Below the pieces are notes generated by a model, which did no database searches, had not been told where the DNA came from, and worked only from the letters and a program-made list of their open reading frames with translations. A stretch of 64,000 nucleotides of DNA, from contig OY776510.1 in NCBI GenBank assembly GCA_963675665.1, forward strand, positions 1,760,001 through 1,824,000, in the 5' to 3' direction. Position numbers and translations under genes: made by a program. Below are positions 16,005-64,000 of the stretch, piece by piece; the stretch's first letter is position 1, and each line of letters begins with the position of its first letter. The DNA comes from Spirochaetia bacterium (GTDB taxonomy: Bacteria > Spirochaetota > Spirochaetia > UBA9216).

Positions 16005-16097
16005 GATTCCGAAATAGCTTCCCTGCTATTTCAGAATCATGAAGGTTGAAAACACAGTTTCCAACCTTCAACCCCTGAAAACCCGCATCCATGCGGG
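16005..16097 (+). repeat. Dispersed three-hairpin element, copy A
   Basis: GAAATAGC-ttccct-GCTATTTC; GAAGGTTG...CAACCTTC; CCCGCATCCATGCGGG. Confidence 0.7.
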
Positions 16098-16117
16098 AAC
16101 TTTTTACAGGAGGGACT

Positions 16118-25347: not shown

Positions 25348-25418
25348 TCCCCTATCTTTAATTTTTTATTTGGCTTTTCCATTAACATGATTTAAAATTA
25401 GATAATCTTGAATGGAGG

Positions 25419-25526
25419 AATGATAAAAGTATTTCCTTTACTTATATCATTTTGAAGTTTGAAAGCTAAACTGCGTTGCAGATTTTGCTTTCAAAACTTC
25501 CTCTTGCAAACCCGCATCCATGCGGG
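25419..25526 (+). repeat. Dispersed three-hairpin element, copy B
   Basis: AATGATAAAAGTA-tttcctt-TACTTATATCATT; GAAGTTTGAAAGC...GCTTTCAAAACTTC; CCCGCATCCATGCGGG. Confidence 0.7.
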
Positions 25527-25547
25527 AATTCTTAATAGGAGATAAAG

Positions 25548-31690: not shown

Positions 31691-32094
31691 GCGTTAACCC
31701 CCTTACGTTCCTTAAGCGATATTACTCCTTTCGGGCACCATTCGATGCACTGGGGTTCGCCGCCGCAGAGATCACAAATCGTGGACTTTTTATTATTCAG
31801 AAAAATTATCTTTGTCGGACAGTTTTTAACGCATGTTCCGCACCCGATACATTTATTTTCGTCAACGATCATCCAGCGGCCGTTATTACTGATTGCTCCT
31901 ACAGGACAAACCTTTTCACATTTTTTGCAGAGAATGCAGCTTTTTGAAGCGATTTTTATTCCCTCGTCGTTGTATTCGTGAATCATCCTGAGCCTTGCTT
32001 TTTCCGGATTGAAAACTCCATAATGGTTTGAAGAACAGGCCAGCTGGCATAATTTACAGCCTGTACATTTTGAAAGATCAAATTTTAAGGGCAT
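31687..32094 (-). CDS. 4Fe-4S dicluster electron-transfer subunit of AOR
   Basis: Four Cys clusters; CAGGAGG RBS before ATG 32094. Confidence 0.92.
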   Translation of the reverse strand: MPLKFDLSKCTGCKLCQLACSSNHYGVFNPEKARLRMIHEYNDEGIKIASKSCILCKKCEKVCPVGAISNNGRWMIVDENKCIGCGTCVKNCPTKIIFLNNKKSTICDLCGGEPQCIEWCPKGVISLKERKGVNA

Positions 32095-32115
32095 ACTACC
32101 TCCTGAAAAAATTTC

Positions 32116-32209
32116 CAGCCATGGACGGCTGTAGTTATCAAGCGGAAGTTTGGGAGTGAAACTACCAAACTTCAAAATTAAAAAAGTGCAGGGATGCGCT
32201 TTTTTAATT
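32116..32209 (-). repeat. Dispersed three-hairpin element, copy C
   Basis: Minus strand: AAAAAAGCGCATCCCTGCACTTTTTT; GAAGTTTGG...CCAAACTTC; CAGCCGTCCATGGCTG. Confidence 0.65.
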
Positions 32210-32304
32210 CCTCCTTTTCAAGAATGGAAGGCAGTATCGTTTCCAATCCTACCCGGCGGCCGGTCTCCATGGGAGGCTCCGTTAGGAAATAGCGGCTCGG
32301 AGAT
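32209..32304 (-). ncRNA. Moco/Tuco riboswitch (variant lacking P3)
   Basis: CTCCGAGC...CCTAA...CATGG...GGC...GGGT...GGAAAC...GCCTTCC...GAAAAGGAG upstream of the aor operon; TTGCAT-N16-TATAAT promoter just upstream. Confidence 0.85.
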
Positions 32305-32425
32305 TTCTACATTATAAATTATCTATACGGTAATGCAATTATATATTATGTGTTTCAGAAAGATATCACCATGAAGTCAGAACCATACTATAGACCAAGA
32401 TTATATTACCTATTATTGTAGAATT

Positions 32426-60903: not shown

Positions 60904-62019
60904 ATGGCAAAAATCGACTATGACCTTGATCTTCAGATAGAACCCGAAATGCCTGAAAAGAAAGATTTCAGGATAGGCTGTATTGGCGCAGGTTTTATTA
61001 TGAAAGATTGTCATTTGGTTGCTTACAGAGACGCTGGATTCAATCCTTATGCGATTACTTCACTTAGCAGAGAAGAATCGGAAGCTGTTGCCGCGGAGCA
61101 CAATATACCCAGGGTTTACGACAGCTGGAAGGATCTGATAAAAGATCCGGAGATCGAAATTCTTGATATTGCGATTCCGCCGGATAAACAGCTTGAAGTT
61201 GTAGAAGCTGCAGCGAAAGAAAGCAGTCATATCAGGGGGATTCAGGCACAAAAACCGCTGGCGATGAACCTGAAAGAAGCTGTAAAGATTGTCAAGGTCT
61301 GCAAGGACGCAGGAATTACTCTCGGGGTGAATTCTAATATGCGTTATGATCAGTCAATCCGTGCGCTTAAGGCTGTTCTTGATCGGGGGTATCTTGGTGA
61401 GCCCGTTCTTGCAACTATCGACATGAGGGCGATTCCCCACTGGCAGGATTTTCTGAAGAAATACGATCGTATCGAGATTCTTAACATGGGAATCCATCAC
61501 CTGGACGTTTTCAGGTATCTGTTTGGTGATCCGGAAAAGATTACAGCTGTCACCAGAAAAGACCCGAGGACCGCTTTTGAGCATATCGACGGGATATCAC
61601 AGGTTACCTATAAATACGCCAACGATTTTATGGCTACTACGCTGGATGACGTTTGGGCGGGACCTGCGGAGGGTGCCGAGAAGGATTATTACATTAGATG
61701 GCGGGTCGAAGGTACGGACGGAATAGCACAGGGAACTATAAGCTGGTTTAATTATCCGGTTCCGACGCCCAGTACCATGGATTTCACGACAAAACAGTTT
61801 CCAGGTTATTGGTTTAAACCGCGCTGGAATAAAGTATGGTTTCCGGATGCATTTCAGGGAACAATGGCGCAGCTTCTGAGGGCGGTTGAGAGCGGAACCG
61901 AACCGGAAATAAGCGGAAGGGATAATCTGAAAACTCTCGCAGCTGTAGATGCAAGCTACAGATCCATCGCTGAAGAGAGAACTGTAGCTCTTGCAGAAGT
62001 ATTGAGAGAAATTCAGTAA
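60904..62019 (+). CDS. Gfo/Idh/MocA family oxidoreductase
   Basis: IGAGFI, DIAIPP, QKPLA, N.RY, HHLD; CAGGAGG RBS. Confidence 0.92.
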   Translation: MAKIDYDLDLQIEPEMPEKKDFRIGCIGAGFIMKDCHLVAYRDAGFNPYAITSLSREESEAVAAEHNIPRVYDSWKDLIKDPEIEILDIAIPPDKQLEVVEAAAKESSHIRGIQAQKPLAMNLKEAVKIVKVCKDAGITLGVNSNMRYDQSIRALKAVLDRGYLGEPVLATIDMRAIPHWQDFLKKYDRIEILNMGIHHLDVFRYLFGDPEKITAVTRKDPRTAFEHIDGISQVTYKYANDFMATTLDDVWAGPAEGAEKDYYIRWRVEGTDGIAQGTISWFNYPVPTPSTMDFTTKQFPGYWFKPRWNKVWFPDAFQGTMAQLLRAVESGTEPEISGRDNLKTLAAVDASYRSIAEERTVALAEVLREIQ

Positions 62020-62064
62020 GAAATATTTTTTTATAGGAGGAATGATAAAAAGTCTTCATGAGCT

Positions 62065-62217
62065 GGTGAATTGATATACTGCCTTAACTTTAATTGAGGC
62101 AGTAAGGTTACTGTTCGACATTTTTACTGGTCCGCGAGACCGTTTAGGAGATTGAAGAGCCGTAACCGAAACATTCAATGGTCTGCGAGACCGGATAGGA
62201 GAATGGAACAATTCACC
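62065..62217 (+). ncRNA. Predicted IS110 bridge RNA
   Basis: Closing stem GGTGAATTG/CAATTCACC, a 5' hairpin, and two TGGTC-YGCGA-GACCG modules each flanked by junction-matching sequence. Confidence 0.75.
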
Positions 62218-62252
62218 GTATAGGCACTGCTTCAAACTATTGGAGATAGAAC

Positions 62253-63365
62253 ATGAAGATGAGTATTGGCGTGGATCTTCACAAAACGCAGTTTACAGTA
62301 TGCCTTTTAAGTGAAGACCGAAAAATTGATCAATTGGGAATGTATCCGACCAGCGGAAATGGTTATGGAGCATTTCTGAAAATGCTGGATGAATATTGTG
62401 AAGAGGAATATGAGTTGAGAGCAGCGGTGGAAACAACCGGGAATGCCCGTTATTTCCGCAATAAACTGTTAAAGGCTGGAGTCGAAGTGGTTGTAGTGAA
62501 TACTTTGAAATTCAAGGTAGTGAATGAATCTGTAAAAAAGACAGACAAACATGATGCACGCACCCTGGCGGAGTTTCTTGAGAAAGACATGCTGCCTGAA
62601 TCGATATTATGTTCCCAAGAGAGTGAGGATATTCGAAGGGTGCTGAAATCCAGGTCGATACTGGTAAAATCTGTTGTGTCGTTAAAGAACCAGGTGCATG
62701 GCTTATTACTTGGTTATGGAATAGAGACCAAACGCGGACAGCTGCAGAGTAAAAAAGAAAGGCAGCGAATCCTGAACGGTCTCGAGGACCACGACTTTTA
62801 CGGAAGCGCTGCCAAAACGGTAATACCGTTACTGGATATGATAGATAATCAGGCATCGCAAGTCAAGCAGCTTGAAAAGGTTTTGGCTGAGCTTGTGGAG
62901 GACGATGAAGATGTTGAGCTTCTGCAGACAATACCAGGCGTGGGTCTAATAACAGCAGCAACAGTAAGAGCCTATACAGACGATATCGGCAGATATGATA
63001 GTGCGAAGAAATATGCAGCAAACGCCGGGCTTGTGCCATGGGTGCAGAACTCAAATATGACAATACATCATGGACATATAACAAAGCGTGGGCCTGTAGA
63101 ACTGAGGACAGCCTTCGTACAGATGGTGATGGGAATGGTTCGTATGCAAAAGAAGACCGGGACGTACCGAATAATGACGAAGTATGCAGCGATGAAGAAG
63201 CAGAAAGGCTCGGGTAAGAGTGTAATAGCTGCCGCCCGCAAGATGAGCACTTTGGTATATACAATTTTAAAAACCAGAGAGCCGTTTGATCCGATGAAAA
63301 TGGCTTTTAGAAAAGAATACAGGGAAATGCAGGCAGCAGCATGGGAAGCTGTAATGGTCGGTTGA
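62253..63365 (+). CDS. IS110 family DEDD transposase/recombinase
   Basis: GVDLHK, VETTG, KTDKHDA (DEDD); TIPGVG, AGLVP...S, ITKRG...LR, AARK. Confidence 0.96.
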   Translation: MKMSIGVDLHKTQFTVCLLSEDRKIDQLGMYPTSGNGYGAFLKMLDEYCEEEYELRAAVETTGNARYFRNKLLKAGVEVVVVNTLKFKVVNESVKKTDKHDARTLAEFLEKDMLPESILCSQESEDIRRVLKSRSILVKSVVSLKNQVHGLLLGYGIETKRGQLQSKKERQRILNGLEDHDFYGSAAKTVIPLLDMIDNQASQVKQLEKVLAELVEDDEDVELLQTIPGVGLITAATVRAYTDDIGRYDSAKKYAANAGLVPWVQNSNMTIHHGHITKRGPVELRTAFVQMVMGMVRMQKKTGTYRIMTKYAAMKKQKGSGKSVIAAARKMSTLVYTILKTREPFDPMKMAFRKEYREMQAAAWEAVMVG

Positions 63366-63427
63366 TATCCGACCAGATCATAAGCTTATATTTTTAGCTT
63401 GTGGTTGACTTTTTATAGGAGGAATTA

Positions 63428-64000
63428 ATGTTACAGGTAGGAATTTTCAACGGATACTTTCCGTATACCCTTGAAAAACAGATAAGCTGTCTGAAGGAAA
63501 ACGGTTTTCAGACTGTACAATTAGATCTTGCGTTCAAGGACATGGACTTTTCGGCGGGAACAATAACCAAAGAAAAATGCCACAAGGTGAGAGATGCATT
63601 CAGAGATGCCAATCTGCCGATTTGCGCCATATCCGGATACACAAATATCATTCATCCCGATCTTGACGAGAGAAAGAAAAGAGTCGGTTACCTTAAAGAA
63701 ATTATCAGGCATGCACGGGACCTTGGAACTCCGTATGTAATTTCCGAGACGGGAACGTACAACACCGAAAGCGATTGGGTTCATCATCCCAAAAACAAGA
63801 CTGAAGAAGGTTATGAAGAATGCGTTAAGGTCCTCGGAGAGCTTGTCCAGGAAGCCTATGATCACGGCGCAGTATTCCTGGTTGAAAACTATGTCAACAA
63901 CGTTATCGGTTCGATAGACGAAGTAAACAGACTGTTTACCGATATCAATCACACAGCCATGGGCCTTCTTATGGATCCGACGAATTACTTCGACGATTCA
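63428..64000 (+). CDS. Sugar phosphate isomerase/epimerase (xylose isomerase-like TIM barrel), 3' end outside window
   Basis: Missing from the ORF track because it has no stop in the window; MLQVGIFNGYF...ISETG...VENY...MDPTN; AGGAGG RBS. Confidence 0.88.
   Translation, partial: MLQVGIFNGYFPYTLEKQISCLKENGFQTVQLDLAFKDMDFSAGTITKEKCHKVRDAFRDANLPICAISGYTNIIHPDLDERKKRVGYLKEIIRHARDLGTPYVISETGTYNTESDWVHHPKNKTEEGYEECVKVLGELVQEAYDHGAVFLVENYVNNVIGSIDEVNRLFTDINHTAMGLLMDPTNYFDDS

Follow-up and report, generated by a model that had tools for sequence, protein, structure and literature searches.

Near the end of the 64,000-nucleotide stretch of a Spirochaetia bacterium genome analysed here (contig OY776510.1, positions 1,760,001 to 1,824,000 of the forward strand; hereafter the window) lies an insertion sequence (IS) of the IS110 family whose upstream non-coding RNA appears to spell the two signals between which the element lands, a Shine-Dalgarno (SD) sequence and a start codon. 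A molecular reason for landing at ribosome-binding sites (RBSs) may thus be readable in the guide RNA itself. The element had been noticed in a reading of the window's sequence (the original prediction), which took it for an IS110 element with a bridge RNA programmed for RBSs. We propose, at a probability of roughly 45%, that a widespread clade of bridge recombinases reads the translation start as two half-sites, the SD with the crossover inside it and the start codon with about four preceding bases, separated by a gap of about 5-8 nt, and that the same machinery moves ~110-nt passengers of the TD-1/TD-2 type. With good confidence, the comparisons below identify the element as an active or recently active IS110-family IS with a two-armed bridge RNA encoded upstream of its recombinase gene.

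With its left limit set at the first element-specific base and its right limit at the last base of the right AGGAG, the IS is 1382 bp long, and it has this length in all 15 full copies in the genome; over a 1356-nt core eight copies are identical and seven carry one mismatch each. In each copy, a left flank of variable sequence runs up to AGGAG and is followed by a constant left end; the right end is constant too and finishes in TATAGGAG. All 15 lie directly 3′ of AGGAG and are followed by an ATG after 6 nt (12 copies), 5 nt (two) or 7 nt (one). This ATG opens an open reading frame (ORF) of 93-729 amino acids, with which the element is always co-oriented. After in silico removal of the IS, an ATG follows at 5-7 nt for 825 of the 6564 AGGAG sites in the genome (12.6%), and for 38 of the 129 AGGAG sites that also match the left-target guide described below at -7 and -6. 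Chance placement at AGGAG-N5-7-ATG is excluded. The original prediction had proposed such a survey of copies, and none was found at a site unrelated to an SD and an ATG. The recombinase was detected in none of ten other genomes of the same family (E ≤ 1e-40), which points to a recent burst; given such a recent expansion, long-term selection is a poor explanation for the placement of all 15 copies. In contigs from four sequencing runs, depth over the IS is ~13 times that of its flanks (61600-63800).

Site-specific, oriented insertion is a trait of the IS110 family, and here the 15 junctions share only AGGAG; the relatives behave alike. The element had originally been placed at 62028-63430, an extent that includes a 16-nt direct repeat particular to the window copy and partly coincidental, only AGGAG being common to all copies; its true limits are 62040 and 63421. 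The accompanying claim that removal restores an SD and an ATG was correct, as deletion of 62040-63421 leaves TATAGGAG-GAATTA-ATG, and so was the claim that the downstream RBS is regenerated, which the right end does in every copy. A genome of the same genus (G007, locus L205) carries the orthologous gene pair without the element, reading TAA, AATATAGGAG, 5 nt and ATG.

For comparison we scored 8000 candidates, 2451 of which were recombinase relatives at E ≤ 1e-30, and studied 175 loci: the 15 own copies, 80 from species genomes and 80 of 283 confirmed metagenome stretches. The left end could be parsed in 138 of the 175 loci and the right end in 141, with 87 distinct left-end sequences. Hosts of these relatives include Spirochaetota, Desulfobacterota and Lentisphaerota, among others.

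The region upstream of the recombinase gene is predicted to encode a bridge-RNA-like RNA. A 163-nt stretch folds at -56 kcal/mol (z = -5.5), and none of 200 shuffles was as stable. The architecture originally predicted was recovered, with a closing stem of 62065-62073 and 62209-62217 (9 of 9 pairs), a 5′ hairpin, now placed at 62078-62104, and two near-identical modules at 62116-62154 and 62167-62205 that are 77% alike over 39 nt. Loop 1 consists of CAUUUUUAC (62119-62127), a hairpin (62128-62142) and UUUAGGAGA (62143-62151), and loop 2 of AACAUUCAA (62170-62178), a hairpin (62179-62193) and GAUAGGAGA (62194-62202). In an alignment of 71 left-end RNAs, 70 of them distinct, RNAalifold predicted 22 pairs, 14 with compensatory changes. 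The specified structure is paired in 89.3% of cells, as against 82.9 ± 0.3% in shuffles and 26-42% with slid partners. Pairs changed on both sides number seven in the closing stem, seven in the 5′ hairpin, three in the outer stem of the target arm, and four and three in the capping hairpins. Helices of guide with guide (CAU/AUG and CAUUC/GAAUG as RNA-RNA pairs) were considered and rejected, as they contain no pair with a compensatory change; the loop strands thus behave as unpaired guides.

A further complementarity was observed between the loop-1 hairpin with its guide (62128-62149) and 62770-62791 inside the recombinase ORF (the codons for ILNGLEDH), which is 91% over 22 nt. It is kept at 17-22 of 22 positions in close relatives, with 22 of 22 in L138, in part because both are GGTC/GACC hairpins. 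Long-range pairing that hides the target guide is possible.

Loop 2 appears to read the element's own ends, as the original prediction had proposed. Its 5′ strand core CAUUC is the reverse complement of the element's first five bases, and across the relatives this guide tracks six right-donor 5-mers (GAATG, GTATG, GCACG, GCATG, GAACG and GAGTG). The donor guide is perfectly complementary in 66 of 75 unique elements; among the nine that are imperfect, L057 and L076 are parsing artefacts that are actually perfect, and L061 pairs through G-T. The loop-2 3′ strand AUAGGAG equals the last seven bases of the IS, and in L170 this left-donor guide and the right end of the element have both changed to AGAAG (TATAGAAG with AAUAGAAGA). 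The matches originally counted for the left strands of the window copy (6/9 in loop 1 and 6/7 in loop 2) were recomputed and are correct, and the proposed test of covariation of the loops with target and donor was positive on both counts.

We evaluated loop 1 in an SD-type set of 104 de-duplicated insertions with 60 distinct target loops, which provide 92 pairs with a full left flank. The loop-1 3′ strand reads NNNAGGAG over these 104 insertions, and AGGAG closes the left flank of 86 of the 92 pairs. Upstream of this word, agreement of guide with flank falls from 85 of 92 at -6 to 70 at -7 and 25 at -8. Summed over the three positions, 180 of 276 agree, compared with 111.8 ± 6.7 in shuffles, none of 10,000 of which reached this sum. 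These data support a left guide that reads about 7 nt only (NNAGGAG), and they agree with the original assignment of the right strand of this loop to the SD side.

The opposite strand had been assigned to the ATG side, and here too the evidence is favourable. CAU stands at a fixed place in 103 of the 104 SD-type insertions, as against none of 13 retargeted ones (see below), and an ATG lies 3-11 nt downstream in 85 of 90 right flanks, with a spacing of 6 in 44. When CAU is set on the ATG, the next six guide bases match the six pre-ATG bases 234 times, compared with 195.9 ± 7.4 in shuffles (0/5000 reaching this value). Per position, from far to near the ATG, there are 23, 27, 46, 49, 50 and 39 matches of 85. 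These counts indicate that the guide reads about four bases, leaving out the two next to the hairpin. When each guide is represented by a single insertion, 2/5000 shuffles reach the ATG-anchored match (0-4/1000 in 20 resamples). Controls were null, both for shifts of -2, -1, +1 and +2 (reached by 223, 1180, 1820 and 1613 of 5000) and for the parallel complement (3185/5000), the same sense (1094/5000) and the reversed guide (4288/5000). Fixed registers of the right guide (-1 with -1, +2 and +3) were also tried and were not above shuffles. In the 41 insertions with a spacing other than 6, the ATG-anchored match was reached by 0/5000 shuffles and the match at a fixed distance from the crossover by 928/5000, which suggests that the right half-site follows the start codon. 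Of the generic TAGGAG-spacer-ATG guide of the original prediction, the reading of both SD and ATG is thus supported by covariation, whereas the left guide is confined to NNAGGAG and the spacing varies.

A retargeted set of 13 insertions, 12 from termite-gut-type Treponema contigs and one further locus (L083), carries other 3′ strands (CCACGGAG, CAGGGGAG and UCGCGGAG, among others). In all 12 with a full flank, the left flank matches the guide at 6-8 of 8 positions. Their 5′ strands, which lack CAU, match the right flank instead (L176 at 8/9, L189 and L166 each at 7/9), and the summed best right match is 70, whereas SD-type guides set against these flanks give 50.4 ± 2.4 (maximum 60). These comparisons support a subclade in which both loop-1 strands and the flanks change together. 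Two members are informative about the crossover. In L083 guide and flank co-change at -4, and in L170 the base at -3 differs between the left and right junctions and the guides follow; with a crossover within the shared AGGAG, -4 and -3 are excluded and the last AG remains. The core is probably AG, that is, CT on the bottom strand.

The sites of the retargeted subclade (L165, L166, L170, L171, L175-L178, L186 and L189-L191) read (C/A)CACGGAG / GCACAGAG and resemble a tandemly repeated word.

We propose the following mechanism. The donor arm would hold the joined element ends, with AUAGGAG in the same sense as the right end's final 7 nt and CAUUC complementary to the left end's initial 5 nt, while the target arm, which may be a diverged copy of the donor arm, would hold the translation start region. 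Given that the loop-1 3′ strand NNAGGAG is in the SD sense, it would pair with the bottom strand, and the 5′ strand, CAU and about 4 nt, would pair with the start codon and the preceding bases on the top strand. Exchange at the probable AG core, the final two bases of AGGAG (bottom strand CT), would then place the element between SD and ATG in the orientation of the gene. A right end ending in TATAGGAG would give a new SD at the native distance, and the host's old SD would stay ahead of the element. That this RNA is made, bound by the recombinase and paired in this geometry is what we infer from the sequence comparisons.

No terminator-like site was found in 61950-63500. Given the restored SD and the shared orientation of element and gene, guide RNA, recombinase and downstream gene could all be expressed by read-through, and read-through from a host promoter could keep the element and that gene transcribed. 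A linear promoter scan returned four sites with 2.9 expected, a scan that is blind to a junction promoter; a distance of 17 nt between TTGACT and TGaTAAAAA would arise only once the ends are joined in a circle, where the two would make up a putative junction promoter. A low fitness cost probably lets the element spread with little harm, with targets before hundreds of genes, transcribed DNA, a sense orientation, and a split signal that is replaced by the element's end. If this model is correct, guide-DNA geometry is not rigid, unlike that of IS621. For users of bridge recombinases, the clade would offer natural examples of a reversed guide order with an upstream RNA, of a split target with tolerant spacing, and of retargeting of both target-loop strands.

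The genome also contains ~110-nt repeats with a three-hairpin fold, whose start is the first ~20 nt of the IS and whose end is its last ~14. A search with a profile derived from 12 of these repeats gave 80 matches genome-wide, of which 52 are near full length. An ATG follows at 5-10 nt after 37 of these 52 and another element after six; nine were not resolved by the parser. At one locus the repeat is present in two genomes (G000 and G009) and absent from two others, which read TTTAGGAG, 6 nt and ATG (G006) and ATCAGGAG, 6 nt and ATG (G010). Among eight repeats tested against Rfam TD-2 (RF03162, gathering threshold 48.7 bits), those at window 32115-32213 (63.6 bits) and L192 (50.1 bits) pass, L194 and L195 score below the threshold at 44.6-45 bits, and L193, L196, L197 and L016 gave no match at E ≤ 0.01; all matches are on the strand opposite to the gene. 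TD-1 and TD-2, described as overlapping reverse complements found in Treponema denticola only, TD-1 usually 5′ of unrelated genes, are treated as candidate RNAs of unknown function in the available text of Weinberg 2007 (PMC1950547). The repeats here resemble the motifs of that account as three-hairpin spirochaete intergenic repeats usually 5′ of genes, but differ from them in carrying IS termini, in lying exactly between SD and ATG and in varying in presence between species. A literature search found no later paper on the TD-1/TD-2 motifs.

Placed at SD-ATG sites and bearing IS termini, the repeats resemble non-autonomous passengers moved by this recombinase family more than a target of it. 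This suggests that the TD motif family, unexplained since 2007, may be a non-autonomous passenger of such elements, which would explain TD motifs in the 5′ untranslated regions of unrelated genes. TD-like passengers could then alter how translation is controlled, for instance where one comes to lie between a riboswitch and its SD.

The window holds three repeats, at 32100-32210 (-), 25418-25541 (+) and 16012-16113 (+). The first lies between an SD-like AAAAGGAG at the 3′ edge of a molybdenum-cofactor (Moco) riboswitch (32195-32314, 66.2 bits) and the ATG at 32094, and brings its own CAGGAG 5 nt before this ATG. With this CAGGAG, the gene may be uncoupled from the riboswitch, and the position of the repeat between the two makes such a regulatory effect testable. 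Elsewhere, the repeats (e.g. G000:C1:2973058-2973366 and 1652329-1652891; loci L192-L197) include tandem arrays of three and five, and at L016:1500-1615 (G000:C1:~2291900) the first ~22 nt of a repeat equal the IS left end, a 27-nt match in the whole-IS search. Repeats are present in all five other genomes of the genus, where the recombinase was not found at E ≤ 1e-40.

Several observations weigh against the proposed bridge-RNA mechanism. Five of the 90 SD-type insertions lack an ATG in the 3-11 nt range, and individual insertions, the window copy (6/9) among them, show a modest match on the right. The last two nt of the loop-1 5′ strand vary, match at chance (the 23 and 27 of 85 above) and appear to pair with no core. 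In addition, the two loops differ in register, since CAUUC of loop 2 abuts the crossover and loop 1 skips two DNA bases. Every guide of IS621 includes the core in the available text of PMC11208160 and PMC11208158, whereas here the 3′ strands end on AG and the 5′ strands appear to lack core pairing. At -7, 11 of the 15 own-genome flanks have A where the guide has U, in part because five copies follow a repeat ending in TTATAGGAG. Our shuffle tests assume independent insertions, despite the relatedness of elements and of hosts. Of 13 sequencing runs listed, none is recorded as RNA, and contigs of four of the strain's own runs (61600-63800) contain neither a circle junction nor an empty site, and Rfam 15 gave only two chance-level snoRNA matches (E 6-10) in 61800-63600.

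The most serious alternative, though one we consider unlikely, is that the RNA reads the SD side only, about 7 nt and the core, with the ATG merely following functional SDs and other insertions lost to selection. The spacing to the ATG would fit this in varying over 3-11 nt, as would the presence of ATG at 94% of sites, which is normal start-codon usage. Complementarity in a fixed register is weak (25/5000 shuffles, and 928/5000 for spacings other than 6), and the spacers are A-rich, so that a U-rich guide matches easily. However, guide bases covary with pre-ATG bases in the antiparallel-complement sense only, the parallel, same-sense, reversed and slid controls all being null. CAU is kept in 103 of 104 SD-type insertions and lost in 13 of 13 retargeted ones, and it is the same strand that in the retargeted members matches complex right flanks. 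Near-identical copies also leave little time for selection, yet none of the 15 is at one of the ~87% of AGGAG sites without an ATG at 5-7 nt.

It is far less probable that the element homes to the 3′ end of the ~110-nt TD-like repeats, as IS621 does to repetitive extragenic palindromic (REP) sequences, with SD targeting as a side effect. Five of the 15 copies do lie directly 3′ of a repeat, and nine left flanks read the repeat-end-like TTATAGGAG and not the guide's UUUAGGAG. Against this, ten copies, the window copy included, have no adjoining repeat, relatives in other phyla use ordinary SDs with -6 and -7 bases that follow their own guides, and the repeats are themselves at SD-ATG sites with IS termini. 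We give still less credence to an upstream region without guide RNA, in which the TAGGAG modules are DNA sites of the recombinase or leftover translation signals and the protein picks the target. The lack of an Rfam match and the SD-like nature of AGGAG itself are compatible with it, but five RNA helices are kept by compensatory changes, the unpaired strands change with flanks and element ends among relatives whose proteins are 55-79% identical, and the recombinase gene has its own, separate SD-like GGAG just before 62253.

The recombinase matches PF01548 (64.9 bits, cut-off 29) and PF02371 (64.3 bits), and its residues D8, E60, D98, D101 and S267 do not vary among 23 aligned relatives; by its two Pfam domains and its invariant DEDD and Ser residues, the protein is a member of the IS110 family. 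Its C-terminal domain aligns with the solved ISCro4 and IS621 transposases (E of 7e-16 and 6e-15), S267 with the catalytic Ser of ...ESG in ISCro4, but the next residue is N, not G. It is distant from the IS621 protein, only the C-terminal ~150 amino acids aligning (E ~1e-15). As far as the available portions of PMC11208160 and PMC11208158 describe IS621 and the IS110 group, the element shares with them the DEDD and Ser recombinase, a long left end that encodes the RNA and a short right one (here 213 nt, 62040-62252, and 56 nt, 63366-63421), two hairpin-capped internal loops, one for target and one for donor, each with one DNA-sense and one complementary strand, the absence of target duplication beyond a shared core, which is CT (here probably, as read on the bottom strand), and -35 and -10 elements, here putative, split between the ends. 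In the guide order given for IS621 and ISEc21 in the accessible text of PMC11208160, PMC11208158 and PMC11187229, the sense guide comes first and the complementary one second, whereas here the guide complementary to the top strand is first. The original label "IS621-type" was inexact in that the guide order is opposite to IS621. Unlike in IS621, the right target half-site does not adjoin the core but moves with the ATG, whose spacing varies. The "handshake" rule of IS621 seems not to apply here: on our reading, the two post-core bases of the 3′ strands lack the fit to non-cognate DNA that they have in IS621.

Other features recall the IS1111 group. The perfect 10-bp subterminal inverted repeat flanking the donor bases at both ends exceeds the 2-3 bp given for the IS110 group and falls within the 7-17 bp given for IS1111 (available portions of PMC11208160 and PMC11208158). 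In the part of PMC11187229 available, seekRNAs of the IS1111 group, e.g. of ISEc11, likewise have the top-strand complement 5′ of the bottom-strand match, and the motif GL-P----S(t)G of these proteins has a counterpart here in GL-P----SN, alike in spacing but with Ser followed by N. That account differs from the present case in an RNA downstream, in a long right end, and in a protein of 330-350 amino acids (here the RNA is upstream, the right end 56 nt and the protein 370 amino acids), and in that both arms here are simple internal loops; it also lists no more than a few IS1111 members with the RNA upstream of the recombinase gene, e.g. ISMtsp17 (PMC11187229). By these features, the element is a mixture of traits that define the IS110 and IS1111 groups.

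Oriented insertion between RBS and start codon is a habit of IS900/IS901/IS902-type mycobacterial IS110 members, which the present element resembles in its insertion site. A literature search found no paper linking RBS targeting to a bridge RNA; PMC7288454 and a Caloranaerobacter preprint were not pertinent. The word "ribosome" occurs 0 times in the available text of Durrant 2024 (PMC11208160), and once, in another sense, in that of Siddiquee 2024 (PMC11187229).

Table 1. Features of the element and its junctions (window coordinates)
Feature	Position	Strand	Basis
Left junction, host AGGAG, end of left target	62035-62039	+	Constant in 15/15 copies; bases upstream vary
Probable core AG	62038-62039	+	Last AG of left-junction AGGAG
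Insertion sequence	62040-63421	+	15 copies, each 1382 bp
Right-donor bases GAATG, putatively read by loop 2 5′ strand CAUUC	62040-62044	+	Guide covariation across six 5-mers
Extended -10-like TGaTAAAAA	62043-62051	+	Reading of sequence; conserved in relatives
Left subterminal inverted repeat ATAAAAAGTC	62045-62054	+	10 nt, 100% complementary to 63407-63416
Bridge-RNA-like RNA: closing stem, 5′ hairpin, target arm, donor arm	62065-62217	+	Fold z = -5.5; helix covariation
Loop 1 5′ strand CAUUUUUAC, putative right-target guide (CAU on ATG, next ~4 nt on preceding bases)	62119-62127	+	
Loop 1 capping hairpin	62128-62142	+	100% paired; 4/5 pairs changed on both sides
Loop 1 3′ strand UUUAGGAG, putative left-target guide in flank sense, ends on core AG	62143-62150	+	
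Loop 2 5′ strand core CAUUC, putative right-donor guide	62172-62176	+	Covariation with element start
Loop 2 capping hairpin	62179-62193	+	99.7% paired; 3 pairs changed on both sides
Loop 2 3′ strand AUAGGAG, putative left-donor guide, same sense as last 7 nt of element	62195-62201	+	Constant with left donor
Recombinase gene, 370 amino acids, DEDD RuvC-like and Ser-containing Tnp domains	62253-63365	+	Only ORF of element; Pfam
-35-like TTGACT, right end	63405-63410	+	Reading of sequence; conserved in relatives
Right subterminal inverted repeat GACTTTTTAT	63407-63416	+	Partner of 62045-62054
Left-donor bases ATAGGAG, element end and regenerated SD	63415-63421	+	15/15 copies; relatives likewise
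Right target: 6-nt spacer GAATTA and ATG (63428) of TIM-barrel gene	63422-63430	+	Orthologous empty site known

The element is preceded by a GFO/IDH/MocA oxidoreductase gene, whose stop codon is at 62019, and followed by a xylose-isomerase-like TIM-barrel gene (PF01261) with its ATG at 63428. The latter is the gene originally called an epimerase; the gene is there, and epimerase is one possible reading of what is better described as a xylose-isomerase-like product. The host SD captured at the left junction lies 3 nt ahead of an ATG that belongs to the element and opens a 10-codon frame (window 62043-62075); this ATG is not conserved in relatives with the ends GCACG or GAACG. One contig in each of three runs joins a diverged 62037-62072 (four mismatches) through six other letters to the right end from 63402; such contigs may come from a tiny deletion derivative at another place in this genome or in that of a related strain.

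Among annotated records, the closest lies on a Thiospirochaeta perfilievii plasmid (76.6% identity); the annotations of the plasmid matches give only "IS110 family". A more distant clade of ~33% identity (L090-L111, from metagenome-assembled genomes of Lentisphaeria, Victivallales and Clostridia) inserts after GAAAGGAG, 5-10 nt before an ATG. Its ends differ, the left starting ATGGTATGAT and the right finishing TTATCATAGGAG, and its 5′ strand has no CAU. Among individual loci, L166 has two elements in tandem with one 8-nt target between them, L057 has a duplicated right end, and L087 a duplicated loop-1 3′ strand.

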